The position numbers were made by a program, and so were the translations under genes. Of a DNA stretch of 64,000 nt, positions 1-44,408 are shown piece by piece. This DNA is from a virus. The DNA lies in the IMG/VR virus record IMGVR_UViG_3300037041_002705, positions 32,001-96,000 of that record; one strand, written 5' to 3'. The notes under the pieces were generated by a model. That model was not told where the DNA came from. It ran no database searches and worked only from the letters and a program-made list of their open reading frames with translations. Numbering within the stretch: position 1 is the first letter of the stretch; each line of letters opens with the position of its first letter.

Positions 1-2
1 TA

Positions 3-2045
3 GCTGTTCCACACCGCGTGGATGTGCCATTCTACTCGAATGCAACTGGCGTTGACAACATCGCTGTTCTGACTGGTTCAGGTAACGATGTAAACGTTCA
101 AGCGTACTCAACACCATGGATTGAGCGCGTCATCGACAAGGTTCAGACATCGCAGAATATCAACGAGTACACACAACGTATCTCGTTTGAAAACCTCGGT
201 GATCAGCCTGTCACATATGAAGCACCGGTCATCCGCGGTACAGACGCATCGAACTTCCGCCTGGTTGACAACGGTAACGTAGGTACGTTCCCAGTTCAAC
301 TTGTCAAGGGTTCTACAAATCAAACGCGTTATGTCACGGTCGCATTCGTTCCAACGGAACTCGCAAACCGTGCTGCAGAGCGCAAGTACAATGCAGAAAT
401 CGTCTTCACGACAACAGGTGCTGATGGCGCAAAGAAGGATGTTGTTGCTGCTCTTGACGGAACAGCATGGCAGCCACAAGTCAAGGGCAATGATCTTGAC
501 TTCCCAGGCACACTAAATGTTGGAGATGAGGCAAAGGTTCTTTCGATCCCAGTATCGAATGAGCACTTCTTGGGTCAGTCAAACCCGACAGACGGTACCC
601 CAGCTGGTACATACAACGTTGTGATCACAGACATCAAGATCACAGACGCTGCAACTCGCTTTGAACTCCTGAATGCACCAACACCAGCTAACCCTTTGGT
701 TATCAAGCCAGGTGAGGCTCCGGTTGAACTCCAAGTACGCTTCGACCCATCGGTCTCAGGTACATTCGAGTCGCCATATGTGATCAGCACGAACGTTGGT
801 ACAAAGGGTCAGGCGACATACGAGCCTACCTATAAAATCACAGCACGTGTTCAAGGTGGTGAGTTCACGGTAACAGATGCAGATGCAGAGCAGTATGTCT
901 TCAACACGAAGGACATGGCTATCCGCATCAAGCACACTGAGAACCAGACGATTCGCTACAACATTGCTCAGCCAACAGGCCCTGATGCTTCACGCTTCGT
1001 CATCGTTGACCAATTCGTCGACGTTGCTCCAGGCCAAGAAGTTGCAGTTCCTGTGATCTTCATGCCTGACTTCGTTACAAAGCTCCGTAATGGTCAATCA
1101 GACCTCAAGGACGCAAACAACGAGTGGACAAAGAAGGCGAAGACACAAGGCATCATGTGGCGTGGCAATAGCTTCGCAGCTGAAGTCGTTATCTCTGACG
1201 ACCGTAATGCAGCGAAGACAAAGACAGCAACGCTTACAGGTAACGGTCTCTTCCTTGAGACAACGAACCTGATCAAGGATACATACACGGTTGCACCTGG
1301 TGCATCAGTTGACATCCCGGTTGAACTCAATGCAACACCTGAATCTGTTGATGCAGTTGGCATGACAGAACTCCGTGTGCGTCTGAGCTGGGATCCGAAG
1401 CTTGTCAAGCCACGTGTTAATGCCGCTGACTTCATCACAGCTGGCCTCCAAGCTGAAGGCTGGACTATTCGCGCAACACCAATCAATGGCAAGCCTTCAG
1501 ATGCATCGAACTCAGTTGAGATCGATCTCTGGGACGAGCGCGCAAATCCAGTTGCTATCAAGAACAACGGTACACCGGTATTCAGTGTGAAGTTCGATGC
1601 ATTCTTTGATAAGGGCGTGTCGGGCACATTCACATCACCGCTGAACATCTACACGTACACTGTTGACCACGACAAGTCTGGTGATCGTAAGGATTACACG
1701 CTCTTCCGCGATATTCCTGGCAAGATCACAATCACAATGCCATGCGCATCGATAACACGCCTTGTTGCTGTTGGTAACTTCAAGTATGCGGTCAAGCCAA
1801 TGAGCCCTAACCCAGTTTCGAACTCAGGTATCATCAGCTACTCAGTGGGTCTTACAGCGAACACACGTATCGTTCTCTTCAACAGCATGGGTCAAGAAGT
1901 TCAGACACTCATCAACGATAAGCTTGAAGCTGGTAGCTATGAGATGACAGTTGACTTCTCGAATCTCCCAACTGGTACATACTTCTATCGCGTCATCTCT
2001 GGTCCGTTCTCGAGCGAACCACAAACAGTGACAGTAGTGAAGTAA
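3..2045 (+). CDS. Large secreted Ig-like/cohesin-like domain protein with C-terminal T9SS sorting domain (5'-truncated)
   Basis: Frame is open from the window edge; choice-of-anchor/ASH-type segments (FENLGDQPVT..., VRFDPSVSG); C-terminus PNPVSNSGIISYSVG...LFNSMGQEVQTL...LPTGTYFYRV...VTVVK is the T9SS type A CTD pattern. Confidence 0.85.
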   Translation, partial: AVPHRVDVPFYSNATGVDNIAVLTGSGNDVNVQAYSTPWIERVIDKVQTSQNINEYTQRISFENLGDQPVTYEAPVIRGTDASNFRLVDNGNVGTFPVQLVKGSTNQTRYVTVAFVPTELANRAAERKYNAEIVFTTTGADGAKKDVVAALDGTAWQPQVKGNDLDFPGTLNVGDEAKVLSIPVSNEHFLGQSNPTDGTPAGTYNVVITDIKITDAATRFELLNAPTPANPLVIKPGEAPVELQVRFDPSVSGTFESPYVISTNVGTKGQATYEPTYKITARVQGGEFTVTDADAEQYVFNTKDMAIRIKHTENQTIRYNIAQPTGPDASRFVIVDQFVDVAPGQEVAVPVIFMPDFVTKLRNGQSDLKDANNEWTKKAKTQGIMWRGNSFAAEVVISDDRNAAKTKTATLTGNGLFLETTNLIKDTYTVAPGASVDIPVELNATPESVDAVGMTELRVRLSWDPKLVKPRVNAADFITAGLQAEGWTIRATPINGKPSDASNSVEIDLWDERANPVAIKNNGTPVFSVKFDAFFDKGVSGTFTSPLNIYTYTVDHDKSGDRKDYTLFRDIPGKITITMPCASITRLVAVGNFKYAVKPMSPNPVSNSGIISYSVGLTANTRIVLFNSMGQEVQTLINDKLEAGSYEMTVDFSNLPTGTYFYRVISGPFSSEPQTVTVVK

Positions 2046-2067
2046 TCGAGCAGTAGCACGTAACCTC

Positions 2068-2105
2068 AACAGCCTCCTTCCGGAACTCCGGGAGGAGGCT
2101 GTTTC
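2068..2105 (+). terminator. Intrinsic terminator / strong hairpin
   Basis: aacagcctccttccgga / tccgggaggaggctgtt inverted repeat right after the stop codon. Confidence 0.75.
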
Positions 2106-2137
2106 ATTATAAACACAGCTTTTCCTCTTAAGGTAGA

Positions 2138-2169: not shown

Positions 2170-2478
2170 ATGATGAAATATCTAAAGCTATCCTGGGCAG
2201 GCATAAAATGGTTTGTTACAGAGATAATGAACATGTATAGCAGCAAACCATCGTTCTTTTCAAAGAAGAGGATCGAATCTGGAATTGCATTTTTTGTTGC
2301 ACAATGGGGAATGATACACTGGTTGACATCAAAGTTTGATGTTATGACAACATCAGATTTTGCGATGTGGGCAGGCATTGAACTTGCAGCAGCAGGATAC
2401 ATGGTAACGCAGATACAGAAAGAAAAGAAAGCAGAAGAATCTGATGTTTATACTGAGGAAAACGAAATAGATCAATAG
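2170..2478 (+). CDS. Putative holin
   Basis: Small, two hydrophobic segments, charged C-tail, directly upstream of endolysin. Confidence 0.6.
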   Translation: MMKYLKLSWAGIKWFVTEIMNMYSSKPSFFSKKRIESGIAFFVAQWGMIHWLTSKFDVMTTSDFAMWAGIELAAAGYMVTQIQKEKKAEESDVYTEENEIDQ

Positions 2479-2508
2479 GTCTGCCCCGAGTAAAAATAAT
2501 TTCAAGCA

Positions 2509-3348
2509 ATGACACTAAAAATAGGATCAGAAGGAGAAGACGTAAAGAAGCTACAAACTGTTCTTGGATTAAAAGCCGATGGAAAGTTTGGTCCTGGAAC
2601 ACAAGCAGCTCTTAAATCTTGGCAAGAAAAGAATGGCCTTGATGCAGATGGTATAGCAGGCCAAAAGACGTTAGAAAAAATGGGAGTATCTCCAACTAGT
2701 TCTGTGCCTACACCAGCACCAGTGGTCCAAGAATCCAATGGAGGGCAAGGGCTAAACATTTCGGCGCTTAAAGGCCACATACCTGATGCAGTTCTTGCAC
2801 AGATACCTGACACTGCAGCAAAGTTTAACATCACAACAAATCTTAGGCTTGCTCATTTCCTTGCACAGTGTGGTCATGAATCAGCTGGATTTAAGGCAGT
2901 ATCTGAAAATCTTAATTACTCTGCAGATGGTCTAAAGAAGATATTTCCAAAGTATTTTCCTGGAAGCCTCAATGAATCATACGCTAAGAAGCCAGAGAAG
3001 ATTGGCGCAAGGGTGTATGGTGGAAGAATGGGAAATGGAGATGAGACGACAGGAGAGGGCTATAAGTTTAGAGGCCGTGGCTATATTCAATTGACAGGTA
3101 AATCAAATTATACAAAGTTTGGACAGTTTATTGGAGCAGATCTATTATCAAATCCAGACCTGGTTGCAACAAAGTATCCTCTTGCATCTGCGGCATTCTT
3201 CTTTGATTCAAATGGCCTTTGGACAATATGTGACAGGGGAGCAACAGATGATGTTGTCACGTCGGTAACAAAGAGGGTAAATGGTGGAACAATAGGGCTT
3301 CCTGATAGAATAAAGCATTTCAAAGAATACTACAATTTATTGACATAA
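2509..3348 (+). CDS. Endolysin: N-terminal peptidoglycan-binding domain + GH19 catalytic domain
   Basis: LKIGSEGEDVKKLQ...DGKFGPGT...DGIAG; AHFLAQCGHES, ENLNYS, FRGRGYIQLTGKSNY, VTKRVNGG. Confidence 0.92.
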   Translation: MTLKIGSEGEDVKKLQTVLGLKADGKFGPGTQAALKSWQEKNGLDADGIAGQKTLEKMGVSPTSSVPTPAPVVQESNGGQGLNISALKGHIPDAVLAQIPDTAAKFNITTNLRLAHFLAQCGHESAGFKAVSENLNYSADGLKKIFPKYFPGSLNESYAKKPEKIGARVYGGRMGNGDETTGEGYKFRGRGYIQLTGKSNYTKFGQFIGADLLSNPDLVATKYPLASAAFFFDSNGLWTICDRGATDDVVTSVTKRVNGGTIGLPDRIKHFKEYYNLLT

Positions 3349-3427
3349 TCTAGCACTTTCTGTAACTTTTTGATGCAAAAAGGCTTCTTATTAAGAACGA
3401 ACACATTCCAAAAAATAGGAGATCTTA

Positions 3428-4114
3428 ATGAAAAATGTAATTCTGTCCATCGCATTCTTGCTTGGAATTTTGATGGTTCCTTCGTGCTCTGACATCACAA
3501 CAAAGCCAGAAGAGCCAAATGCAATGTACTTCCAAGTGAACGGCGATGGATCATATGCTGAGCCCGAGGCAGTTGGAGAACGCCCAAATAGGGATTCAGT
3601 AAAGAAGGACACAACAGATAGAAAGAGGGATACCACAACAGGCCGCAAGGATACTGTTAAAAAGGCACCCCCAACTATATTCGGTGACCTACTTAACAAG
3701 CTAAACCTTGGTCCAGATCAGAATGCAATCGTTGAAAGGCTGCTTGCTCAACACAAGGCATGCGTAGAAGAATGCGTAAAGCCACTGAAGGCAGCAGAGG
3801 CAGAGATACTCGCAAAGGCCCGAAAACAAGAGGCAGAGATCAAAAAGGCAGTTGAAGCAGGCACAATAACAAAGGCCCAGGCCCGCGTAAAGCTTGCTGC
3901 CCTAAAGGCAAACGTCAATAAGGCACTAAAGTCACTTCCAGTTCGTCGGTCAGTACAAGAATGCATAAAGGCATGTGATGCGACTTTTATAAATGGACTT
4001 GAGCGAATTCTCAGTGCCGACCAAAAGATCATACTAAAGAGCTGGTTGGATTCAAGGGCAAAGCGTGGCACTTCTGGAAAGAAGGATACGACTGATGTTA
4101 AGCCAAGAGGTTAA
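3428..4114 (+). CDS. Lipoprotein, Spy/CpxP-like helical periplasmic protein
   Basis: Signal peptide ending in Cys20 (MVPSC); two LTXXQ-like motifs (LNLGPDQ, ILSADQ) flanking a helical region. Confidence 0.5.
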   Translation: MKNVILSIAFLLGILMVPSCSDITTKPEEPNAMYFQVNGDGSYAEPEAVGERPNRDSVKKDTTDRKRDTTTGRKDTVKKAPPTIFGDLLNKLNLGPDQNAIVERLLAQHKACVEECVKPLKAAEAEILAKARKQEAEIKKAVEAGTITKAQARVKLAALKANVNKALKSLPVRRSVQECIKACDATFINGLERILSADQKIILKSWLDSRAKRGTSGKKDTTDVKPRG

Positions 4115-4184
4115 TAATTTTGTTTAACTGAGAGTATATAAGCTGTTACTAATAATGGTAATAAAATAAAGAAAGGAACATTTC

Positions 4185-4769
4185 ATGAAGACATTTTTGA
4201 TTTCTATTCTTTGCTTGCTCTCAATGGTGCCTGCATTTTCACAGGAAACACCTGTTTGTGCAACTCCAGCAAAGAAGTATGTAAACGAGCTTGGTTTGGT
4301 ATTCCCAACAAAGACCGATGACATAAAGGGCTACATCAATGCAAACAACATTGCAGTCAATCCTTTGACGTCTGGTTTTAGCTCAGGCTTTCAAGTAGGA
4401 AAGCACCGCATTATAAATGACCAAGCCACACTTGGCGTTATATTGGCTGCAAATGGATTCTTCTCTGCAGGATCTGCCGAGAACCAAATCTATCAGTTTG
4501 GTGCATATCTAACAGGAAGGCTATACTTTGGTGAGACGTGGAGGAATGGAGTTTTTGCAGAAATTGGAGCGGGTCCAGAAGTTGCAGCAGCATCAGTCCA
4601 AGGCGGCGACTTCCAGTTCCAGGCAAACTTTGGAACAAAGCTGGGTGTTGGATACAACTACCAGTTTAACAAGGATGTAACGCTTGGTCTTTCCTTCATC
4701 ACAGCACCATCGATGCTGTCAGACAACTACTTTAATGGATCTAAGATTGTTGTCAATATGCTTTGGTAA
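4185..4769 (+). CDS. Outer-membrane beta-barrel protein (small, OmpA/porin-like)
   Basis: Signal peptide; alternating amphipathic strands (FGAYLTGRLYF, LGVGYNYQF); C-terminal aromatic residue (NMLW). Confidence 0.65.
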   Translation: MKTFLISILCLLSMVPAFSQETPVCATPAKKYVNELGLVFPTKTDDIKGYINANNIAVNPLTSGFSSGFQVGKHRIINDQATLGVILAANGFFSAGSAENQIYQFGAYLTGRLYFGETWRNGVFAEIGAGPEVAAASVQGGDFQFQANFGTKLGVGYNYQFNKDVTLGLSFITAPSMLSDNYFNGSKIVVNMLW

Positions 4770-6937: not shown

Positions 6938-7534
6938 ATGAGCAACATTTTAGACGAGCTAGAAAGCATAGCCAAGAACTTTGGTTCCATAAACCCAATA
7001 GAAAAGGGAAATCCAATACAACCTGCCCAACAGGTGTATGTCAACTTTGATGATCTGCAAGAGGATATTAGGATTCAGGCAGAGAAAACAGTGGACTCAA
7101 TAATAAACTTCTATGTCCAAGAGGACTTTAAGTCTGAATCCGTGATGGTTCAGAAGAGGCTAGTTGACATAGATAATCTAGCAGACATAATGTTTTGCAT
7201 AGTGAGCTCATCCTACACCCTCAAGAAGGTGTTGGCAGAAATAGACCAAGGAAACATAACTCCAAGGCTTATAGATACCCAAACCTCTTTGATATCAAAG
7301 AAGAAGGAATATAACCAGCAGCTGGCATTGATGCAAGTCTATCTCAATGATAGCTATAAGTCGCTTGCAAACCAATGGACGATGAGAACAGACCCATCTC
7401 CATCAGCAAGGTCTATAACCCAACAGGCACAGTCTCTCACAAGATCTGATATGGATGTTGAGATCTCAAGAGGATCAAGGGACATTCTCATGAAACTTAG
7501 AGATGAGATAGACGGGCAACAGACCGAAGAATAA
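6938..7534 (+). CDS. Putative terminase small subunit
   Basis: Helical ~200 aa ORF directly upstream of TerL; AAGGA before ATG 6938; positional inference. Confidence 0.4.
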   Translation: MSNILDELESIAKNFGSINPIEKGNPIQPAQQVYVNFDDLQEDIRIQAEKTVDSIINFYVQEDFKSESVMVQKRLVDIDNLADIMFCIVSSSYTLKKVLAEIDQGNITPRLIDTQTSLISKKKEYNQQLALMQVYLNDSYKSLANQWTMRTDPSPSARSITQQAQSLTRSDMDVEISRGSRDILMKLRDEIDGQQTEE

Positions 7535-7543
7535 AAATAATTG

Positions 7544-9433
7544 ATGTCGAAACTCTTTACAAAGATAACGGTCCAAGATACTGCCGAAGAAAAGGATAAG
7601 CTTTCATCAGTATGGTCTACTGCAAAGATAGATGCATACTTTGAACAGTACAGCAAAGGTGAAAAGCTTGGGCCTGCGCCATTCATAGATGGAGACATTG
7701 GAAAGAAGTGTGCAAATCTTCCGTTTCAATACACCCCAGATGAGTTAGAAGAGTTTAAGAAGTGTGCAAAGGACGTTGTGTACTTTGCAGATAAGTACGC
7801 GAGCGCAATGACCGATGAGGGCATCCAGAAGATTCAACTTCGTGATTATCAAATAAGGACGCTCTCGGATTTTCAGAATAATCGTTACGTTGCTCTACTC
7901 GCCGCGCGCCAGGTTGGAAAAACAATTACCTCCGCGATCTACATAACATGGTACATCTGTTTTCATGTTGATAGAAACACGCTTATTCTTGCAAACAAAG
8001 GAGCAACCGCAAAGGAAATCATGGAGAAGATTAAAGATGTCTATGATAGGCTTCCTTATTTTCTTAAACCTGGTGTTGTCGTCAATAATGTTCAGACGAT
8101 GTACTTTGATAATGGTTGTAAGATATTTGCCGAGACAACAACAAAGAGTTCAGGTCGTGGCAAAACAGTTCACCTTCTATATGCTGATGAGTTTGCTTTC
8201 ATTCCAGATAATATCGCAGAAGCATTCTATACATCTATCTACCCAACTCTTTCATCATCAAAGGTATCACAGATTATAATCACAAGTACACCTAATGGCC
8301 CAAATCTTTATTACGATATTTATATGGGCGGAATAAATGGTACGAATGAATATAAATCATCTAGGATTGATTATTGGGAAGTTCCAGGCCGTGATGAAGA
8401 ATGGAAACAGAAAGAAATTGGAAACCTTGGCCTTGAGAAGTTTGAGACCGAGTACGGTCTAAAGTTCTTTACAGGATCAAAGATGCTTCTTTCTGAGGAA
8501 CAGATTGAACGCCTCAAGAACGGACAGAAGTACTATGAGTGGAGAGAGATACCAGAGATACACGACCTTGAGATAAACCACGATGGTCTCATATGGGATC
8601 CAGACTTTGATTTTAGCTTTGACGATAAGAGGTTTGTTGTATCAATTGACCTCGCAGATGGAAACGGCAGGGACTCAACTGTATTCAACATATTTGAACT
8701 AAAGCCAAGAGGCAAGAGTGATCTGGAAACCGTAAAGTCTCCAACACAGGAAAGTGACTTCTTCTATCTTGATCAGATAGCCGTATTTAAGGATAACAAG
8801 GTTTCGATAGAAAATGCTGCAAAGATATTTGCAGAGCTCCTCATAAACTACCTGGGTGTTGAAAATACAAAGGTTGTTGTTGAGATAAACTTCAAGGGCG
8901 ACTACTTTATATCAAGGGTCCTCAATGATCCAAAGTACATGGATGATGTCTTTGAGGACGTCTTTGTCCACACAAAGCACACAAAGGATTCAAAGAAGAA
9001 AAAGCCAGGAGTTAGGATAAAGAGGGACAACAAGAACCTCTTCTGTACGACGTTCAAGAGGCTTGAGCAGCTGAGAAAGATCAGGATCTATGAAAAGGCG
9101 ACGTGCGAGGAGCTTATAAACTTCCAAAGGACGGAATCATCCTACTCAGCAGACAGCACACACCATGATGACCTGGCCATGTCATGTGTTAACCTGTGCC
9201 CATACCTCATAGACTTTGACATAGATGGCCAGCCAGCAGGAGAGGACTTCCTTCTTCAGACCGAAGAGATGTTTGATAGCCTGGAAGAAAGCGTCAAAAA
9301 CACGATCCAATCTAGCATTTATAACACCCTTGACAGCCAGGATAATGATGTTGTTGACTTTATGGATGGCTTCAATCTGTTTGATTCTGAATTTAAGCCA
9401 GAACCGCCCCCAAACCTGAATTTTACTCTGTAA
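7544..9433 (+). CDS. terL: Terminase large subunit (T4 gp17-like)
   Basis: LRDYQ adenine motif, ARQVGKT Walker A, LYADEFAF Walker B, TSTPNG coupling motif, SIDLADG and HDDLAM nuclease acids. Confidence 0.96.
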   Translation: MSKLFTKITVQDTAEEKDKLSSVWSTAKIDAYFEQYSKGEKLGPAPFIDGDIGKKCANLPFQYTPDELEEFKKCAKDVVYFADKYASAMTDEGIQKIQLRDYQIRTLSDFQNNRYVALLAARQVGKTITSAIYITWYICFHVDRNTLILANKGATAKEIMEKIKDVYDRLPYFLKPGVVVNNVQTMYFDNGCKIFAETTTKSSGRGKTVHLLYADEFAFIPDNIAEAFYTSIYPTLSSSKVSQIIITSTPNGPNLYYDIYMGGINGTNEYKSSRIDYWEVPGRDEEWKQKEIGNLGLEKFETEYGLKFFTGSKMLLSEEQIERLKNGQKYYEWREIPEIHDLEINHDGLIWDPDFDFSFDDKRFVVSIDLADGNGRDSTVFNIFELKPRGKSDLETVKSPTQESDFFYLDQIAVFKDNKVSIENAAKIFAELLINYLGVENTKVVVEINFKGDYFISRVLNDPKYMDDVFEDVFVHTKHTKDSKKKKPGVRIKRDNKNLFCTTFKRLEQLRKIRIYEKATCEELINFQRTESSYSADSTHHDDLAMSCVNLCPYLIDFDIDGQPAGEDFLLQTEEMFDSLEESVKNTIQSSIYNTLDSQDNDVVDFMDGFNLFDSEFKPEPPPNLNFTL

Positions 9434-28389: not shown

Positions 28390-30002
28390 CAAACTCAGAG
28401 AAAATAGACTTTTTGTACTCAAAGTTTGTATCACCAAATTCAGCACAGACTTCAGTGTTCAACAGCCAAGTATGGGCCCAAGGAAATGATATACCATTGA
28501 CCATACCATCATTTGACACAAACGGAGAGTACAAGAATTCGTCAGATGAAGTCATACTAAAGAAGAACGAATACGTTAAAATGATGCTGGTTCCTGGGTT
28601 TCCAAATGCATTCTCTTCAACGGGCGTGTACGATGTGGTCAGCTATGAAAATGGATTTGATCCCTCTTATGAGTATAAGTTCTTCACAAGATCATCAAAT
28701 GGAAGCTATGTTGAGATACCATTTGGAGAAGGTGGGTACTTTTTTGACCATGATACAGGAATACTTTTCTTTCCAGAAGGAAGAACACCCCTGTATAATT
28801 CTGCGAGCCTGTACATAACATTCATACAGTATGTAGGAAGAAAGGGAATCAATACAACCTCACAGTTTTCTGGGTATCCACAATCAGGACAGATGGGTCC
28901 TACTGGCCCAACAGGCCCAACAGGTGATACTGGATCTGCTAATCCCTTTTCCATAAGATACAAAGGTACATGGTCGTCGTCTGTTGAATATTCAAAATGG
29001 AATTTGGTAAAGTATGGTGGCAAGTTTTTCATTTCAACGATAAACTCAAACAGCTACTATCCAACAAATGGAACATACTGGCAGCCATTTGGGATCCCGC
29101 AACTGTCTGCTGTATTCAACAGTCCAGATGATACCTATTGGGTCTCTCCTAACTTCACGCAGACAGGAGAGCTCTATAACGATATTGAAAGCGTCTTTAA
29201 TGACATAAATGTTCAAGCCTTTACAGATACAACTATTGTCATTTATCCGGGCAACTACCAAATAAATGACAGCATAATCGTTAGGAATGGCGTAAACATA
29301 AACTTCGTCTTTTACGGAAATGTCACAATCTCTTTTAGAGATGATGCACTCTCCATGATCTTTAATCAGGGAAGCAAGATAGAATTTAGAGGGGACGGTT
29401 TTGAGTTCACAAACGGCAATGTGCGTCTAAATGGTTCAAGCCTTTCAGTTGTTGGAGGAAAGCTTCCAAATGTTCAGCTCTTGACAACAACACTGGCTGA
29501 TACATCAAGGCTCATGATGGTAAATTCGGAACTTTCATATCTAACAAACCATGGATCATTTGCATCACTAAGAGGAACGAACGTGGTCAACAAAATAACC
29601 ATGGATGAGGTATCCGTTGTTCACATAGAGGAATGCATGATACAGGCAAGGCCAGATGATGATCCAACCCAGGAAAAGATAGAAATAATCTCGGCTGTTT
29701 CAAGCGGCACCCCTCCGGGCTTTGGATATGAGAATCCTGCCCTTTTGATAAAGAACTCTCGGGTTCTGTCAAACGAAGCAGTTCTCTATTCAACAATTGC
29801 CCCCCTATATGGAATGCAGATAGGACTAATTTCTTCTGCTCTGTATGTGAAAGATTCAGCAACAAGCTTCCTTGACTTTTCTGATGTCATGGATGCGTTT
29901 GTTTTCAATACAGTTGTCAACACAACATACGACGATACAAAGCTACAGATACTAAACATCAATGGCCAGTTCCAAACCATTGAGGCTAATTTTGAAGACT
30001 AA
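28386..30002 (+). CDS. Tail-fibre paralog 3
   Basis: DHDTGILFF..ITFIQYVGR; GPTGPTGPTG; YKGTW..YSKWNLVKYGG; IVIYPGNY beta-helix entry motif. Confidence 0.6.
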   Translation: MTNSEKIDFLYSKFVSPNSAQTSVFNSQVWAQGNDIPLTIPSFDTNGEYKNSSDEVILKKNEYVKMMLVPGFPNAFSSTGVYDVVSYENGFDPSYEYKFFTRSSNGSYVEIPFGEGGYFFDHDTGILFFPEGRTPLYNSASLYITFIQYVGRKGINTTSQFSGYPQSGQMGPTGPTGPTGDTGSANPFSIRYKGTWSSSVEYSKWNLVKYGGKFFISTINSNSYYPTNGTYWQPFGIPQLSAVFNSPDDTYWVSPNFTQTGELYNDIESVFNDINVQAFTDTTIVIYPGNYQINDSIIVRNGVNINFVFYGNVTISFRDDALSMIFNQGSKIEFRGDGFEFTNGNVRLNGSSLSVVGGKLPNVQLLTTTLADTSRLMMVNSELSYLTNHGSFASLRGTNVVNKITMDEVSVVHIEECMIQARPDDDPTQEKIEIISAVSSGTPPGFGYENPALLIKNSRVLSNEAVLYSTIAPLYGMQIGLISSALYVKDSATSFLDFSDVMDAFVFNTVVNTTYDDTKLQILNINGQFQTIEANFED

Positions 30003-30010
30003 ATATATAC
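30002..30010 (+). promoter_or_regulatory. Putative late promoter AATATATAC
   Basis: Core ends 4 nt before ATG 30014; ATATATACGGCATG identical to the site at 50740. Confidence 0.65.
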
Positions 30011-30013
30011 GGC

Positions 30014-31675
30014 ATGTTAACACCAGAAGAAAAGAGCGACCTCTCATACAAACAGCTTAATGCCTCCAAGGTTTCAACAAACACGAGGCTTTTGCCATTT
30101 GAAGAGTCAAACCAGTCAGACCTTATAGTGTTTCCAGAGAACATCTGGACGAATGCAAAGGAAATACCAACATCAGGTCCTACCGGATACAATCCATTGT
30201 ACCCGACAGGAACGGGTGCAACAACTGGAACCTCATACGTCTATTCAAGCGCCACTGGTCCTTGGGTCACTAAGAAATGGGTCTACCATCCTCTTGCGTA
30301 TGAGCTTGGTTCAAACTATGCTTTTCGTAATACATCAGAGCCAGTCCTAAACATAATGGACTTCAATATGTTTGGTCCTGAGTATGAGGTATCATTGTAC
30401 TACAAAGATGGTGCGACATTCATAGAGATACCGTTTGGACTTGGAGACTGGGTCGTGAATCATTATTCCGGCGTTGTTACGTTCTATGGTGACCTCCCAG
30501 ATGGTGTCGGCGTTACTGGAAATCTTGGAGATCTTTACATAACAGCATACACTTATGAAGGACCTTTTGGTGTTACTGCAGGTGCAGGACCGCAAGGACC
30601 AACAGGACCTGCGGGAGGACCAACAGGAGACACGGGTGCAGCCGGATCGCAAGGACCGCAAGGAAACCAAGGAAATATTGGGCCTGTCGGCCCTCCTGGA
30701 TCTGCTGGTTCTGGGGGAATACAAGGCCTCCAGGGACTCCAGGGACTCCAAGGACTCCAAGGTGGAGATGGCGCCCAGGGTTTACAAGGTTCAGCCGGTG
30801 TAAGAGGATACCAAGGACTTCAGGGGCAAGCAGGCCCGCAAGGTCTTCAAGGCTTTGGCCTTCAAGGAAATCAAGGCATTCAAGGCCTCCAAGGCCTTCA
30901 AGGTAATCAAGGTAATCAAGGACGTCAAGGTTCTTTGGGTCCAACCGGACCTGCCGGTGACGCTTCTAGTTTTACTGGGCCCCAAGGAAACCAAGGAACA
31001 CAAGGCGCACAAGGTGCACAAGGAAGACAAGGAAACCAAGGTGTTCAGGGTGCACAAGGCACACAAGGATCACAGGGGGCACAAGGAAGGCAAGGTCCTC
31101 AGGGAACACAAGGAAATCAAGGTTCTCAAGGAACACAGGGGGCTCAAGGTGCACAAGGCAACCAAGGCCCTCAGGGAACACAAGGGGCTCAAGGTTCTCA
31201 AGGAACACAGGGGGCTCAAGGTGCACAAGGCAACCAAGGCCCTCAGGGAACACAAGGGGCTCAAGGTTCTCAAGGAACACAGGGGGCTCAAGGGGCACAA
31301 GGCAACCAAGGGCCTCAGGGCAACCAAGGCCCACAAGGACCTGATGGGCCAACTGGAACATGTCCATGCCCAACAAAACCAGTTTATCAAGCAGTTGGGC
31401 CTGTTTCTATATCTGGCTCAACAACATACACGCTTGATTCAAATAATGCAAACGAGGTTCTCTTCTATGGTGCGTCATCTTCAGGATTCACTGTTGATTA
31501 TACACTTTCAAGCAATCCTCCTTCTGGAGAAGCATACGTGTATACAATAGCAAATGTCGGTGGAAATTCATTTACGGTCACGGTAAACACGGGTGAATCA
31601 ACAACTCTTGCGGCAAAGAGAACGCTCGTAATTTACGAGAGCTCAACCTCCATGTTCTCCATACTAACATCATAA
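30014..31675 (+). CDS. Collagen-like tail fibre (paralog 4)
   Basis: Same N-domain (NHYSGVVTF..ITAYTYEG), long Gly-X-Gln run, small C-terminal beta domain. Confidence 0.85.
   Translation: MLTPEEKSDLSYKQLNASKVSTNTRLLPFEESNQSDLIVFPENIWTNAKEIPTSGPTGYNPLYPTGTGATTGTSYVYSSATGPWVTKKWVYHPLAYELGSNYAFRNTSEPVLNIMDFNMFGPEYEVSLYYKDGATFIEIPFGLGDWVVNHYSGVVTFYGDLPDGVGVTGNLGDLYITAYTYEGPFGVTAGAGPQGPTGPAGGPTGDTGAAGSQGPQGNQGNIGPVGPPGSAGSGGIQGLQGLQGLQGLQGGDGAQGLQGSAGVRGYQGLQGQAGPQGLQGFGLQGNQGIQGLQGLQGNQGNQGRQGSLGPTGPAGDASSFTGPQGNQGTQGAQGAQGRQGNQGVQGAQGTQGSQGAQGRQGPQGTQGNQGSQGTQGAQGAQGNQGPQGTQGAQGSQGTQGAQGAQGNQGPQGTQGAQGSQGTQGAQGAQGNQGPQGNQGPQGPDGPTGTCPCPTKPVYQAVGPVSISGSTTYTLDSNNANEVLFYGASSSGFTVDYTLSSNPPSGEAYVYTIANVGGNSFTVTVNTGESTTLAAKRTLVIYESSTSMFSILTS
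31121..31320 (+). repeat. 72-bp tandem repeat (nearly 3 copies) within collagen region
   Basis: Units start at 31121, 31193 and 31265 (ggttctcaaggaacacagggggctcaagg...), encoding GSQGTQGAQGAQGNQGPQGTQGAQ. Confidence 0.9.
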
Positions 31676-31677
31676 TC

Positions 31678-32202
31678 ATGGCAGTTCAAGAACCATTATA
31701 TTGGGTGAATGGGGTTCCAGTGTATCCCAACCAAGTTTCCTATGTGACTCAACAGGTTGATGATACTCCTGATACCATAGATGTAACTGGGGATCTTCTT
31801 ATAAACTCCTTGACTTTTGATAATCCTCTAGACGTAGAGATAAAGAGCGGCCTTCCTCCTTATGAGGTAGCAACAAGTGGCACGTCCTACATATCACTTA
31901 CTGCAGACCAAGAGGTTACGGTCATATACAATGTTGATAACTTTGAAATAACATTTGACATTGCGCAGCCTCCTGCAAAACTTCTGCTTGTCATGTTTTC
32001 TTCTGGAATAATAGGAGGGGGTCTTAAGATAGTTGCAAACCAACTTCTTGGGGCAGGAACAGGATCCATACTTCTGAAAGATGATGATGACATTATAGTT
32101 GATCCAACCGATGTAAATGGATACAACAGAGCATCATTGCTTTTTGTCTCTGACGGTCTAAATTGGATAGAGCTAAGTAGATTTTTGTATACAGCACAAT
32201 GA
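31678..32202 (+). CDS. Small fibre-associated protein
   Basis: C-terminal LLFVSDGLNWIELSR trimeric-tip-type motif. Confidence 0.55.
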   Translation: MAVQEPLYWVNGVPVYPNQVSYVTQQVDDTPDTIDVTGDLLINSLTFDNPLDVEIKSGLPPYEVATSGTSYISLTADQEVTVIYNVDNFEITFDIAQPPAKLLLVMFSSGIIGGGLKIVANQLLGAGTGSILLKDDDDIIVDPTDVNGYNRASLLFVSDGLNWIELSRFLYTAQ

Positions 32203-34910
32203 TAGCAAAGATTCCATCCTTAAGGATAACAGCTGCGCATAGTTATATGGTCGACTACCCATCTGGCGACTATACTCTATTTAGCCAATCCCTTAATGAA
32301 ACATCCCAGTTTGCATTTAGTGATGTTCCAATATATGAGAACAGCATTCCTGCCGCATATGGTAGGTGGTATCTGTTTGATGACAACGGCCTTACCAATA
32401 ACCTCATATATGACGTAAACCACAATGGGCGTTATCATCTCTATTTCAAGGGTCTGAAATATCTGTCAAACATATCAGACCTTTGGTATATGAACTCGAT
32501 ATTGGTTGGGTACAATAACAATCCAAATCCAATATTTGGAAAGAACATATCGGCAGTATCGCTGCAGTCCTTTGCAAACATAAACCTTGCAGTCGATGCA
32601 GCATACCTATCAATGGATTCAATAAAGCCAGCAGGAAAGACTCTGGACGAGGGGCTGTTTGAATCGACTGATGTGGGAATAAGGCTTGTGATGTTTGTTG
32701 ATAAGCTAGATCTTGTGAACAGAACTGTTGGAACAACAACGATAAAAAATCTACAGTTCCACTTCACAATCAAAGCATACCTAATTGATCCTTCTCTTGG
32801 AGGGCAATACCAAGACTTTACGACCACGTCTCTTCTTGGTCAAAAGAGCTTCTACTACGAACAGACGGTTCCAACATATGTAAGATCAAACTTTGCAACA
32901 AAGAATTCACTGAAGACAGGATGGGGACATTTCATATACCCCTTGACGACGAATGATACAACTGCTATAACCTATGTACAGCTAAGCGATGTTATAAAGA
33001 CTGTTTACAACGCAATGATATTTGCACAATCAACCGACAACGTATCATTGAGGGTAAACTCAACAGGTCTTCTTTCCTGGCTAAATACAGATATAACACT
33101 GAAGAATGCGGCAGATGCATACACGCCTTCATCGGTCACGACAAACCAGCCAACAATCCCGGCATTTGGGTTTACGGAAGCAAATGTTCTAAAAGACTGG
33201 CTTGCTGCAATTTCTGCCCAAGCGACCGTCAAGGGCAGCCCATCGGCAGACTTCCTGTTGAGCTATGATAACATATATTGGGAACCCCTGTCCGATCTTT
33301 ACACTGGAGATGTATACTCAAACAGCCCTGCAATATTCATGACTAGGCTGACTACATACTACCAAGGAACTGGACAAAGCCCAATAGATGAGCCCGGAAA
33401 CTTTGAAAACCCAGGAGGGTTCATAAAGTCAAGGAGAAAGTACTTCTTATCGAATCTGATACAGTATGTTGCAAGCAAGTCATCTGTTGATAAAAATCAG
33501 ATATCCCCGTATCTTGAAACAGCAAACCCCGAGAGGTTCCTTGGATCAAAGTTTTTTCCATTTTACAAGTTCAAACAGTATAAGAACAACACATCCGGAA
33601 AGGAGCTACTCGATCTGATAACAGTTCCATTTTCGTCTTCTGAGACTGCAACAAACATCATTGAGTGTGAAACTTCAACTGAAATAAAAAAGGTTGTACC
33701 CGATTCGGTCAATCAGTATAGAAGGAAGATAATAACAAAGCCAGATCTGCTTCCAAGCTCTCTTGGATCAACGACAACCGAAAAGATCAACACAATTGGA
33801 TACGTTCAATATGTGAACAACGATGGAACGTCTGAAAACATACAATTGAATCTGAGCGCAGGAACATCGAGAAGAGAAGTGTTTGCATTTCTTACATGGA
33901 TATACCTTGCTCCAAGCATAATTGGTGAGACTGCACAGTGGACAAAGGGTGGAAGATACTTCACATATGCAAGAGATCTTGAGACCAAGCTGTGGCTTGG
34001 TTATAATGGAAACCGCTGGTCGGAGTATGGAATCTGTGAAATAATCAACTCTGGGATGTATGATACTCCAGAGCTTGCATACAGAGCATACAAAAGAGTT
34101 ATTGAAAAGATCTATGTTTACTCTGACCCATCTCCATCCAATCCTGAATGGAAGGACTTCTACAAATGTCTTCCATCAACAGAGACAATAGAAGAGACAA
34201 CTGAGTATTGCGATCCTTCACCATCTCCCGATGGAAGACAGGTCATAAAAAGAATAAAGAAACAGCGAGTTTCCACAACGGCTGCCGGGGTAAAAACAAA
34301 TGTTGGAAACCCAACGTATGACTACCCTATAACCACCGTCATTCTCAAGAACCAATCACAGATAATAAATGGGACGACCATACTTGGAGACAGGACCATA
34401 GTGTACAAGGAGTGTGGTGAATTCTCTAACACATTTACCCCATATCCTGTTTCACCAACAGGACCGGTCATAAAGACTGGGCCCGGAGGAAACAAGAAGA
34501 GAGAGGTTGATCTTTCACTTGAGGATTTTGTAAATCCTGCCGTGTTTAAGGTAAACACGGTGGTCCTAAGCCCATCAGCATACCCCATACCACTTGTCCT
34601 GGGCGATACGTATTATAAGATAGACTTTGACCCAGATGACGTGGGCGATGAATCATCAGACTATACGATAAGACTATTCCCTGGTAAAAGGGGACAGGTT
34701 TTAATACTGGAAATAAACACCATTGGAACACCATACAAGGGCGTCCAACTCATAAATGCAGACCTTCTAGCAAACAATAAATCATCTCAGAGGACATACA
34801 TCTCAACAGATGTTTGGGGAGATGGCAATGGAAGCCCAGTCAGATCGTATCTCTTTCTTCTTTATGATGGAAATGACTGGATAGAATTTCTGAGACGGGA
34901 TATATACTAG
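32199..34910 (+). CDS. Large hypothetical virion protein
   Basis: 903 aa; C-terminal FLLYDGNDWIEFLR similar to the upstream gene. Confidence 0.6.
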   Translation: MIAKIPSLRITAAHSYMVDYPSGDYTLFSQSLNETSQFAFSDVPIYENSIPAAYGRWYLFDDNGLTNNLIYDVNHNGRYHLYFKGLKYLSNISDLWYMNSILVGYNNNPNPIFGKNISAVSLQSFANINLAVDAAYLSMDSIKPAGKTLDEGLFESTDVGIRLVMFVDKLDLVNRTVGTTTIKNLQFHFTIKAYLIDPSLGGQYQDFTTTSLLGQKSFYYEQTVPTYVRSNFATKNSLKTGWGHFIYPLTTNDTTAITYVQLSDVIKTVYNAMIFAQSTDNVSLRVNSTGLLSWLNTDITLKNAADAYTPSSVTTNQPTIPAFGFTEANVLKDWLAAISAQATVKGSPSADFLLSYDNIYWEPLSDLYTGDVYSNSPAIFMTRLTTYYQGTGQSPIDEPGNFENPGGFIKSRRKYFLSNLIQYVASKSSVDKNQISPYLETANPERFLGSKFFPFYKFKQYKNNTSGKELLDLITVPFSSSETATNIIECETSTEIKKVVPDSVNQYRRKIITKPDLLPSSLGSTTTEKINTIGYVQYVNNDGTSENIQLNLSAGTSRREVFAFLTWIYLAPSIIGETAQWTKGGRYFTYARDLETKLWLGYNGNRWSEYGICEIINSGMYDTPELAYRAYKRVIEKIYVYSDPSPSNPEWKDFYKCLPSTETIEETTEYCDPSPSPDGRQVIKRIKKQRVSTTAAGVKTNVGNPTYDYPITTVILKNQSQIINGTTILGDRTIVYKECGEFSNTFTPYPVSPTGPVIKTGPGGNKKREVDLSLEDFVNPAVFKVNTVVLSPSAYPIPLVLGDTYYKIDFDPDDVGDESSDYTIRLFPGKRGQVLILEINTIGTPYKGVQLINADLLANNKSSQRTYISTDVWGDGNGSPVRSYLFLLYDGNDWIEFLRRDIY
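34899..34907 (+). promoter_or_regulatory. Putative late promoter GATATATAC
   Basis: Overlaps end of previous gene, upstream of 34929. Confidence 0.55.
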
Positions 34911-42587: not shown

Positions 42588-44408
42588 ATGAATCTACAGC
42601 TTTTGAATGAAGCACAGATCATCAATGAGTGGACACCAATGCTCGAGTCAGTAGGCGTCAAGGACGGCTACAAGAAGAACTGGATGTCAAAGTACTGCCA
42701 CTATCATCAGATGAACGAAAGCTTCGTAAACGAATCTTTCCAAGGCACAGGCCTTGCACAGCTTATCAATGTTCCTGGTCAAGGACCAGTAAACATGGGT
42801 ACAGCAATGACGACACCTGCAAACTTCTACAACACATCGTACCAAGGATCAGGTGATAAGTTCCCATCGCTTCTTCCGCTTGCAATCCAGGTTGCAGCAA
42901 AGACGGTTGGTTTTGACATCGTTTCTGTTATCCCGATGCCAGGTCCAACAGGCATCCTTCCTTACCTTGACTACATCTATGCAGGCGGTAAGGTTGATCT
43001 TGATGGCACAACAAACTCAAATGCTACACAGCCTTTGATGATCAGCATTGCAGCTACATCGGTCTACGATGATCCAACAGTTGGTGACACATACTATGCT
43101 GCACCTCTTCAGGCTGCTGCAGACACATCAAGCGCAACAGGTTACTCTGTAACTCTTGCTGCTGACGTTGCTGCAAAGCTTATCTATGTTGGTAAGTCAT
43201 TTGTAACAGGTGATCTTATCTTCCGTGTTACATCAACAGGCAACGTTTCTTCAGCTGGTGCTTACACAGCAGGTGCAGACACGAACACAGTAACGATTGC
43301 TCAAGTTTTTGATGTAGGCTCAGGCAACACATTCTCATCTATCCTTGGTGAAGCTAGCACAAACACTGCAAGCGATGAAGCATATGCTTCAGCAAACGGT
43401 ACAACGGCTAGCCCATTCCGCCCAGGTTATGTGAGCGCCCTTGAGAACCACATCTATGGCTTCTCAGGTGCAGGTGCAAATGACACAAACACTTGGAACG
43501 GTCCATTCACAGATGGTACAAAGGCATACGATCCAATGAGCAGGGGCACAGGTGAAGAAACCTACCCACGCGCAATGGGCATCCAGACGTTCACAAAGAA
43601 CGTACAAGCTGGTACATTCCAGGTAACGATCAGCGTAACAACTGAGCAGATCCAGGACATGAACCGCCAGTTCGGTATCGATATCCTTGCGATGGCAGAA
43701 GGCGTACTTGTTAATGAGGTATCTCAGTCAATCAACAAGCACATCCTTTCACGCGCATTCGCTCTTGGATGGCAGAATAACTATGATGTTTATCAGACAC
43801 AAGGCTTCACACTGAACCTTTCGCTTGATCCAACACAGACAGCTTCTGCAACATCGTCATCGTACATCGGCAAGACAAACGGAGCTCTTACATGGAATAA
43901 CAACATTCCAGCGTATGCAGATTACGGAAACTTCGAGAACCTCTCGACAGCACAACAGCGCATCGTCAGCAAGATCCACGCTGCTTCAAACCTCGTCCAC
44001 ACACGTGGTCGTCGTGGCCCAGCGAACTTTGTTGTAACGAACGCTCAAGTTCTGTCAGCTCTTAACATCGTTAAGGGATTCTCGCTTGCTCCATTCGATA
44101 ACACGCTCAACCAGTCAAGCGGTCAGCTGTACCCAGCAGGCACGCTGTTTGGAATGACAGTATATGTTGATCCAAACATGACATGGAATGACACACGCGT
44201 TCTCGTTGGCCGTAAGGGTGCTGACATCGAGCCAGGCATCAAGTTCATGCCTTACCTCATGGCAGAGTCTATCAGCACAATCGCTGAAGGCACAATGTCA
44301 CCTAAGATTGCTGTCAAGAGCCGTTACGCTCTTGTTGAGGCTGGCTTCTATCCAGAAGCTCAGTACTATGCATTCTGGGTTGAAACACCTGCTGCAGGTA
44401 TCGTCTAA
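42588..44408 (+). CDS. Major capsid protein (gp23-like)
   Basis: EWTPMLES, DIVSVIPMPGPTG, EQIQDM..FGID, NEVSQSINK, RRGPANF, FMPY, PKIAVKSRYAL; strong codon bias. Confidence 0.95.
   Translation: MNLQLLNEAQIINEWTPMLESVGVKDGYKKNWMSKYCHYHQMNESFVNESFQGTGLAQLINVPGQGPVNMGTAMTTPANFYNTSYQGSGDKFPSLLPLAIQVAAKTVGFDIVSVIPMPGPTGILPYLDYIYAGGKVDLDGTTNSNATQPLMISIAATSVYDDPTVGDTYYAAPLQAAADTSSATGYSVTLAADVAAKLIYVGKSFVTGDLIFRVTSTGNVSSAGAYTAGADTNTVTIAQVFDVGSGNTFSSILGEASTNTASDEAYASANGTTASPFRPGYVSALENHIYGFSGAGANDTNTWNGPFTDGTKAYDPMSRGTGEETYPRAMGIQTFTKNVQAGTFQVTISVTTEQIQDMNRQFGIDILAMAEGVLVNEVSQSINKHILSRAFALGWQNNYDVYQTQGFTLNLSLDPTQTASATSSSYIGKTNGALTWNNNIPAYADYGNFENLSTAQQRIVSKIHAASNLVHTRGRRGPANFVVTNAQVLSALNIVKGFSLAPFDNTLNQSSGQLYPAGTLFGMTVYVDPNMTWNDTRVLVGRKGADIEPGIKFMPYLMAESISTIAEGTMSPKIAVKSRYALVEAGFYPEAQYYAFWVETPAAGIV

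Follow-up and report, generated by a model that had tools for sequence, protein, structure and literature searches.

Apparent recent capture of a host T9SS surface-protein gene by a large phage of freshwater Ignavibacteria

The 64,000-nt stretch of viral DNA analyzed here (the window) comprises bases 32001–96000 of a 133,673-base IMG/VR virus record, IMGVR_UViG_3300037041_002705, which is of the linear class and has a CheckV completeness of 42%. At its 5' edge lies an open reading frame (ORF) for the C-terminal part of a large predicted surface protein whose sorting domain is that for type IX secretion (the secretion system abbreviated T9SS), and it is this gene that concerns us. A sequence-only reading of the window had taken positions 3–2045 as the gene; the ORF is real, but it is open at the window edge and represents only the last 45% of the gene, the true start lying 2,442 nt further upstream. 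The complete gene occupies bases 29558–34045 of the record (hereafter C1), or 11558–16045 in L004, the frame used for the upstream DNA, in which position 11558 equals C1:29558; it starts with the ATG at L004:11558 and encodes a protein of 1495 amino acids (P0001). As described below, the source phage appears to be a large phage of freshwater Ignavibacteria, with its host assigned via metagenome-assembled genome (MAG) bins, and the gene appears to be a near-exact copy recently captured from such a host.

The first 22 residues of P0001, inspected by eye, look like a signal peptide, with a positively charged N-region and a hydrophobic core, and end in AFSQ. The protein contains a PF17517 domain (Table 1), which is also matched by the homologs encoded in two other virus records, L009 and L010. 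The model of the highly conserved N-terminal domain (pLDDT 79, pTM 0.83) is all-beta, and its many invariant His, Asp and Glu residues are situated in low-confidence loops. Comparison of this model with the PDB gave no convincing fold match (Foldseek TM ≤0.14), the best VIA-align result being a Z of 10.5 to TM1070 confined to residues 10–123. The Ig- and cohesin-like modules proposed by the sequence-only reading were upheld in part. The AlphaFold2 model of the last 281 residues (mean pLDDT 84.9) has two beta-sandwiches, the terminal one at residues 197–279, and its best PDB matches by Foldseek are cohesin modules (2w1n, E 1.2e-8; 2vn5_C, 6kgf_A and 2xdh, target TM 0.61–0.66), the top cohesin matches overall having E values of 1e-8 to 5e-6 and target TM of 0.53–0.66. 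No cohesin profile (PF00963-type) was found in a Pfam search at E≤0.01 with either the fragment or the full protein. The model indicates a cohesin-like jelly-roll fold in the C-terminal part, and such a module may suggest that the protein docks partners or serves as a scaffold. The Ig-like matches are weak within the 680-residue fragment (HYDIN/VesB Ig, 16.8 bits; choice_anch_D, 18.9 bits) and better upstream.

The T9SS type A sorting domain, also proposed from the sequence, passed both profile searches above the curated cut-offs. PF18962 (Por_Secre_tail; cut-off 27) scores 30.9 bits on the fragment (residues 602–667) and 34.6 bits on the full protein (1417–1482), and TIGR04183 (cut-off 23) reaches 30.6 bits with the fragment and 35.8 bits when the last 120 residues are taken. 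The domain sits at the extreme C-terminus, the match stopping at residue 1482 of 1495, 13 residues short of the stop. The export architecture of the copy appears to be intact, and export, tail cleavage and surface attachment are predicted. What had been noticed by eye, that is, the modules with their T9SS tail, a hairpin behind the gene and an unusual codon bias, is real.

P0001 belongs to a protein family found in bacteria. When 5.8 billion proteins were searched, the 8000 candidates scored included 128 matches at E≤0.001, mostly colinear proteins of about 1400–1560 residues with identities from 90% down to 41%. Some of these homologs are on contigs of 0.5–2.35 Mb, with labels of Ignavibacteria, Kapabacteria or Bacteroidota; the suggested likeness to Ca. 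Kapabacteria proteins is borne out by Kapaibacterium-labelled homologs at 73% identity. Scanning one genome per GTDB species yielded 51 loci. In the closest loci (L011, L012, L018 and L013) genes for a T9SS Ig-like protein, a 283-residue protein of unknown family, HIT, KsgA and PAP2 lie upstream, and genes for a GSDH-like T9SS protein, WaaA, enoyl-CoA hydratase (ECH), NAGPA and NamZ lie downstream. The flanking genes of L011 recur in 29–42 of the 52 other loci compared and, because the same neighbors recur across loci, the gene is to be counted, in Ignavibacteria/Kapaibacteria-labelled MAGs, among the syntenic core genes of the chromosome. The phage genes that neighbor the window copy are absent around all 51 species-representative loci. 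The nearest ortholog, L011, belongs to an Ignavibacteria-labelled MAG (G001) that encodes SprA (895 bits summed, in a 2276-aa frame), in keeping with the FCB-group host predicted earlier and with a candidate host that would possess a T9SS. G001 is our putative host, an assignment that rests on MAG bins.

Three further observations concern these bacterial loci. The L011 gene sits between two T9SS-tail proteins, the 845-residue Ig-like protein upstream and the 504-residue GSDH-like protein downstream. A shorter paralog (about 870–940 residues; L057, L059, L060 and P0109–P0121) with PF17517 occurs in some of the same genomes, several copies having a T9SS tail. Nine loci that carry the gene (L014, L019, L022, L025, L032, L033, L039, L051 and L055) are titled Didemnitutus, Patescibacteria, Chitinophaga pinensis, Bradyrhizobiaceae or Hyphomicrobiales; wherever the flank could be typed its synteny is of the Ignavibacteria/Kapaibacteria type, and the organism labels look wrong.

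The window copy is strikingly close to the bacterial gene. C1:29623–34108 aligns with L011:6069–10560 at 95.7% nucleotide identity over 4492 nt with two gaps. The left limit of homology falls at codon 22–23: both proteins read TERRGTMVL... from there onward, and the preceding signal peptides are unrelated. The right limit lies 63 nt beyond the stop codon and takes in the G+C-rich hairpin, which for this reason belongs to the host gene's own 3' structure and is probably its terminator, imported with the gene. The claim of a strong hairpin was well founded: folding of the 80-nt stretch yields −34.9 kcal/mol (z −7.4), which none of 200 shuffled sequences equals, a simple terminator scan having missed it because its T-run is weak. 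Promoter-like sites occur at chance level in our promoter scan (8 found, 8.5 expected). The Bacteroidota-type −7 motif, scanned for with the consensus TAnnTTTG, lies upstream of 7 of 126 phage ORFs, neither the surface-protein gene nor the capsid gene being among them.

Sliding identity in 150-nt windows, which gives approximate patch limits, revealed a mosaic. Identity to L011 is 98–100% at gene nt 376–2175, 2401–2850 and 3226–3900, and lower at nt 1–375 (77–93%), at nt 2176–2400 (68–74%) and in two patches that fall within the window (Table 1). The patch at residues 720–805 has its best match (80%) in a different bacterial lineage, the L038/L083/L084 group. Judging from the blocks of 98–100% identity, the transfer would be very recent. 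Its direction is read as host to phage because synteny is retained around the bacterial copies, which diverge in step with the DNA on either side of them. As regards the identity and origin of the gene taken alone, we are highly confident.

That the copy resides within a phage contig, as the sequence-only reading assumed, is supported by its neighbors and by read data. Upstream of it lie genes for an AAA+ clamp-loader-like ATPase, a PolB-type exonuclease, a 5'-3' exonuclease, a DEAD_2/Helicase_C_2 helicase and a DUF1599 protein, and downstream genes for a holin candidate, an endolysin, a lipoprotein, a small outer-membrane protein (OMP) barrel, TerL, a tail sheath, a prohead protease and the major head protein. 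In run X2, from a different study, a single 17,457-nt contig covers L004:10000–17401 with 59 differences and no gaps at an even depth of 23.5, bridging both junctions; its arrangement is 99.2% identical to the record, from which it is five years apart by run records. Since both junctions are thus crossed by one contig of separate origin, the record is not a chimera. Run X1 crosses the stretch without differences and, as it may be the source sample, is not independent. Run X6 presents another picture: contigs of the gene at depth 19–25 break off at L004 11623 and at 16105, where their loose ends continue into what reads as host sequence, the phage flanks are at a depth of about 6.9, and the assembly graph forks exactly at the homology limits. 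From these depths and forks it follows that host and phage co-occur in the X6 sample, which, with host-type gene contigs and phage flanks together, offers a place for direct study of the pair.

The gene recurs in other phages. No relative turned up when viral contigs were scanned with a single protein, and alignment-based scans gave only two IMG/VR records, L009 and L010, in both of which an endolysin homolog lies directly 3' of the surface-protein homolog. A metagenome contig scan with an alignment of divergent matches of about 1411 residues gave 40 loci. When 93 loci were typed by their flanks, 63 proved bacterial and 12 phage, 18 were too short and none was mixed. The phage-type module consists of a small T9SS-tail protein, a 387-residue secreted repeat protein, the surface protein, in some cases an OMP barrel, and a GH19 lysin. 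In all 12 phage-context loci the surface-protein gene is flanked by the 387-residue gene, the lysin gene (57–93% identity) or both; in three (L072, L073 and L074) a copy of the OMP barrel, at 66–68% identity, is interposed between the surface-protein and lysin genes. The module occurs in very different large phages: the L010 record, of 253 kb, is rated complete, and its head protein matches that of the window's phage over only 140 residues, at 34%.

Outside the window, on the minus strand of the same record (L003; C1:2899–4483), a 134-residue protein with a signal peptide and a PF18962 match (38.7 bits) is followed by a 388-residue secreted protein rich in Ala/Asp/Ser/Asn repeats, the C-terminal domain of which is conserved; a gene for an M15 peptidase adjoins the pair. 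Homologs of both proteins lie directly upstream of the surface gene in L009, as does a 387-residue homolog in L010, L069, L074, L078 and L101. Since the two genes are 25 kb away and on the other strand, the module is split in the window's phage.

Phylogeny separates two kinds of phage-borne allele. In a tree of 64 rows, from which L066, L067 and L096 had been dropped as duplicates of L009/L010 along with ORFs shorter than 1300 residues, a separate clade (support 100) unites nine phage-context rows with a single untypable one. The remaining two phage-context rows fall inside the bacterial clade, the window copy as sister to L011 (98; 95–96% protein identity) and L078 as sister to L013 (100; 98%). 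An IQ-TREE analysis of 26 rows gave the same topology, and the approximately unbiased (AU) test rejects a grouping of all ten phage rows together (delta lnL 1310, p 8.9e-6). The phage-type sequences number 41 clusters (P0067–P0107). Genomic context is known for 10 members of the phage-type clade, whose identity to the bacterial orthologs is about 45% at the amino acid level. None of the 51 species-representative loci falls in this clade, though both motifs used for that scan are conserved in it.

Two observations bear on how a bacterial allele came to occupy the phage position. From the first mature residue onward, the window copy is host-like, but its signal peptide and 5' leader are not, and they resemble those of the phage-type clade: against 36 phage-type peptides the best ungapped identity of the window signal peptide averages 7.8 of 22 residues (maximum 11; 6 of 36 at 10 or more), and against 90 bacterial-type peptides 5.1 of 22 (maximum 8; 0 of 90 at 10 or more). 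The L078 locus repeats the pattern, its flanks (L078:1–2315 and 6997–7643) being about 80% identical in nucleotide sequence to phage L009 and its interior (L078:2466–6975) 96.3% identical to bacterial L013; here the N-terminus is a junction of a phage-type start with a host signal peptide. The simplest account would be that a resident phage-type allele was replaced in place by a host allele, through recombination during infection, on at least two occasions.

The codon usage that had singled out the gene has a similar explanation. The window gene has a G+C content of 49.5% (0.515 at third codon positions), the L011 ortholog 49.8% (0.523) and the phage bulk 43.2% (0.451); the L011 gene itself (L011:6001–10497) stands out from host flanking genes at 52–56%, and its codon bias exceeds that of the ribosomal proteins. 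For Arg, CGC and CGT together make up a fraction of 0.94 in the gene, against 0.74 for the capsid gene and 0.14 for the phage bulk (whose AGA and AGG reach 0.80); for Ile, ATC makes up 0.77, 0.83 and 0.24, respectively. Over synonymous fractions the gene correlates with the phage head (capsid) gene at a Pearson r of 0.92 and with the phage bulk at 0.59, so that the reported capsid-like bias holds numerically. It correlates equally well (0.92) with 22 host ribosomal-protein and elongation factor (EF) genes (4475 codons), less well with the host flanking genes (0.70), and best with the host ortholog (0.99). Given this last value and the 95.7% nucleotide identity, the bias was inherited with the gene and is uninformative about expression from the phage; the earlier step from codon bias to a highly expressed phage gene does not hold. 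The bias is the mark of a very highly expressed host gene, and the case cautions that capsid-like codons in a phage gene may be inherited in this way and are no proof of phage-driven expression. The head gene uses host high-expression codons (r 0.87 to the ribosomal/EF set), the phage bulk preferring AGA, AGG and ATA. It resembles the surface gene because both are tuned to the same host preferences, and its likeness to the host set therefore lends independent support to the host assignment.

By the Nei–Gojobori method dN/dS is 0.206 between the window copy and L011, 0.079 between L078 and L013, and 0.056–0.078 among bacterial orthologs. With L018 used to polarize the codon changes, 36 nonsynonymous and 72 synonymous ones fall on the phage branch, and 7 and 23 on the L011 branch; the nonsynonymous changes are concentrated in the mosaic patches. 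The phage copy is under purifying selection that is either looser than in the host or seemingly so, the ratio being inflated by imported patches. Because of the extreme codon bias, the strong conservation, the T9SS tail and the all-beta repeat build, we infer that the host protein is a dominant cell-surface protein; that it forms an S-layer-like coat is conjecture.

The other features of the locus are collected in Table 1. The genes at 2170–4769 form an envelope-directed run, in which the lipoprotein and the barrel could be a spanin-like pair or "moron" surface proteins. Queries with the 388-residue protein and the OMP barrel found no match in the candidate host genome, a MAG that is incomplete, which leaves absence unproven. 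A 553-residue ORF (window 30014–31675; 48% G+C) matches many collagen-like tail-fibre PHROG families and forms one of the compositional GC peaks. No tRNA genes were found in the 133.7 kb of the record.

Table 1. Features of the surface-protein gene and its surroundings, in window coordinates where these apply
Feature	Window position	Strand	Protein residues or gene nt	Basis or remark
Host-derived block, part within window	1..2108	+		Alignment to L011, sliding identity
Surface-protein gene, 3' part	3..2045	+	Residues 816-1495 (C-terminal 680 aa)	Part of 1495-aa protein P0001
PF17517 (IgGFc_binding N-terminal domain)			Residues 142-499	Above gathering score: 144.4 bits, E 5.9e-42
Ig-like region			Residues 626-727 of full protein	Weak matches: Cep192_D4, HYDIN/VesB, DUF1573, ASH
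Divergent mosaic patch	408..707	+	Gene nt 2851-3150	83-93% nt identity to L011
Cohesin-like beta-sandwich module (predicted)	1254..1739	+	About residues 1233-1394	AlphaFold2 model and Foldseek
Second divergent patch	1683..1832	+	Gene nt 4126-4275	87-90% nt identity to L011
T9SS type A C-terminal sorting domain	1806..2003	+		PF18962 and TIGR04183
G+C-rich hairpin, 16-bp stem	2068..2103 (2068-2083/2088-2103)	+		Probable host terminator
Holin candidate, 102-aa ORF	2170..2478	+		Position between hairpin and endolysin only; without family match
Endolysin, PG_binding_1 and GH19	2509..3348	+		Homologs, 57-77% identical, downstream of surface-protein gene in related phage loci
Predicted lipoprotein, 228 aa	3428..4114	+		Lipobox-like N-terminus; C-half looks coiled-coil
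Outer-membrane beta-barrel protein, 194 aa, signal peptide	4185..4769	+		PF13505 22.5 bits, under cut-off 28.7
Major head protein	42588-44408			phrog_138

Taken together, these data lead us to favor, if with some reserve, the explanation that a captured host surface-protein gene is kept in a phage slot with a host-compatible supply role, the supply role being its weakest step. The phage lineage would keep a slot for the host's dominant T9SS surface protein, and recombination with the host chromosome during infection would overwrite the slot with the allele of the current host. The product would be exported via Sec and the host T9SS and then fixed on the surface of the infected cell, and the phage would in this way sustain a heavily expressed surface scaffold or coat protein, much as cyanophages do with psbA. 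Supply is preferred to masking because it is the host-identical allele that gets fixed. The phages probably alter the coat of infected cells. We put forward more tentatively, as a possibility that is itself somewhat doubtful, that in large phages of freshwater Ignavibacteria/Kapaibacteria the arrangement is a host-matching device, a dedicated slot refreshed repeatedly with the current host allele from first mature residue to terminator, the phage signal peptide and leader being kept. Were this so, the infected cell would be able to retain or restore a "self" surface coat or scaffold that the phage controls, and phages would, as a side effect, become shuttles that shuffle alleles or patches of the surface protein between host lineages, as the patch at residues 720–805 may illustrate.

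Several points weigh against the supply explanation. At 2–3 times the bacterial background, the dN/dS of the phage copy, together with an end branch about 4.5 times longer than that of L011, could signify relaxed constraint on a passenger gene. None of the four core phage-type alleles tested has a match to the T9SS-tail HMM (the outlying L010 allele scores 27.3 bits), and consequently the role of the family in phages may not depend on the T9SS; the diverged alleles may work in another way, such as in variant or periplasmic form. The N-terminal domain lacks an informative structural match that could point to a function of the host protein itself. The phage clade was defined after the first tree had been seen, and the signal-peptide likeness, which involves a short, low-complexity sequence and related, non-independent rows, is suggestive only. 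Finally, RNA runs X15–X20 contained 4–5% of the sampled words and give no evidence either way on expression.

The sequence-only reading had proposed instead that the protein is a highly expressed phage product displayed via the host T9SS for receptor masking, superinfection exclusion or altered adhesion. The predicted signal peptide and the T9SS tail, both intact, would suit such a role, as would the co-located envelope-directed genes (OMP barrel, lipoprotein, small T9SS-tail protein and 388-residue secreted protein), and a similar one has been proposed for variable phage T9SS cargo (Bellas et al., 2020; PMC7468147). A near-identical copy makes an awkward mask, however, as it puts nothing different in place of the host protein, and both the window copy and the L078 copy are of this kind; the inherited codon bias is silent on phage expression; and a setting of lysogenic conversion is unsupported, no integrase (PF00589) having been found in the 133.7-kb fragment of a record that is only 42% complete. 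We consider this explanation unlikely for the window copy, but exclusion stays alive for the diverged phage-type alleles, whose distance from the host protein would suit a variant or blocking coat and whose four tested core members have no T9SS-tail match. Decidedly improbable to us is a neutral passenger, a host gene left behind by homologous or illegitimate recombination with no role in infection and bound to decay. The transfer is recent enough for this, and the raised dN/dS (0.206 against about 0.06) and longer phage branch point the same way, yet the 1495-codon frame is intact with a dN/dS well under 1, and the 5' junction lies exactly at the boundary of signal peptide and mature protein, with the result that the export signals are preserved. 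Nor would a passenger readily account for the same slot being filled in 12 phage-context loci, including that of the complete 253-kb phage, for a second and independent overwrite in L078, or for the recurrence of the arrangement at 99.2% identity in the run of another study five years apart.

The constant company of the 387-residue gene and the lysin, with the OMP barrel interposed in three loci, might suggest a lysis or release accessory that weakens or reorganizes a T9SS-anchored surface layer for escape of the progeny. We give this very little weight: between the gene and those for lysis stands the strong terminator-like hairpin, a host-identical allele is no obvious disrupter, and no enzymatic family or fold was recognized in the protein. 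An assembly chimera or host contamination of the viral record seems to us scarcely credible. The X6 sample, where host and phage co-occur and the graph branches at the homology limits, is a typical chimera-prone setting, but against this stand the evenly covered X2 contig across both junctions, the phage genes on both flanks, a signal peptide and mosaic patches that L011 does not have, and the same layout in L078, which comes from another metagenome.

The case presents a phage equipped with what appears to be its host's own major secreted surface protein, not an accessory enzyme, and a conserved envelope module shared by several large phages, one of them a complete phage of 253 kb. It would single out this surface protein as a focus of phage–host interaction. 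The two independent overwrites, resolved to the base pair, provide a natural tag for tracing, within an uncultured phylum, which phage infects which host.

Among known systems, the TfsA and TfsB proteins of Tannerella forsythia are S-layer glycoproteins secreted by the T9SS, large, all-beta and abundant, with a T9SS C-terminal domain. The family described here is likened to them by general description only, an S-layer being conjectured from codon bias, conservation and architecture. Small phage-encoded outer-membrane or exclusion proteins that are placed in the host envelope include Lom and Bor of phage lambda, Llp of T5, and Cor. Like these, the present phage would put its own protein in the host envelope, but they are unrelated to host surface proteins; to our knowledge none is near-identical to a host gene and none uses the T9SS. 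Phage-encoded T9SS cargo has one earlier report, which terms it a "unique occurrence": the "Cryophage" carries three variable T9SS type A cargo genes, for an endoglucanase, a GH39 protein and a PA14 protein (Bellas et al., 2020; PMC7468147). The Cryophage likewise belongs to an FCB-group host whose secretion system its cargoes, which vary between phage variants, are presumed to use. It differs in the nature of the cargo, which here is a conserved core surface protein of the host, copied at full length, set in a module common to several large phages and overwritten by host alleles. Nothing about this family in phages, nor about the overwriting of a phage surface-protein gene by a host allele, emerged from our literature search, which did not extend to supplementary files; phage-encoded T9SS cargo itself was published in 2020, and the new part is the recurrent overwrite. 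Another parallel is with cyanophage psbA and psbD, phage-borne host genes for which intragenic recombination between host and phage has been documented (Sullivan et al., 2006; PMC1484495). Like the present gene, psbA is a phage copy of a heavily expressed host gene that forms its own phage clade and yet undergoes mosaic exchange with host alleles. Unlike psbA, which encodes a photosystem protein of the cytoplasmic membrane with a turnover rationale, the gene described here encodes a 1495-residue secreted surface protein and has undergone replacement of nearly the whole gene, and it would bring to the cell surface the psbA-type "molecular mixing bowl" known from metabolism.

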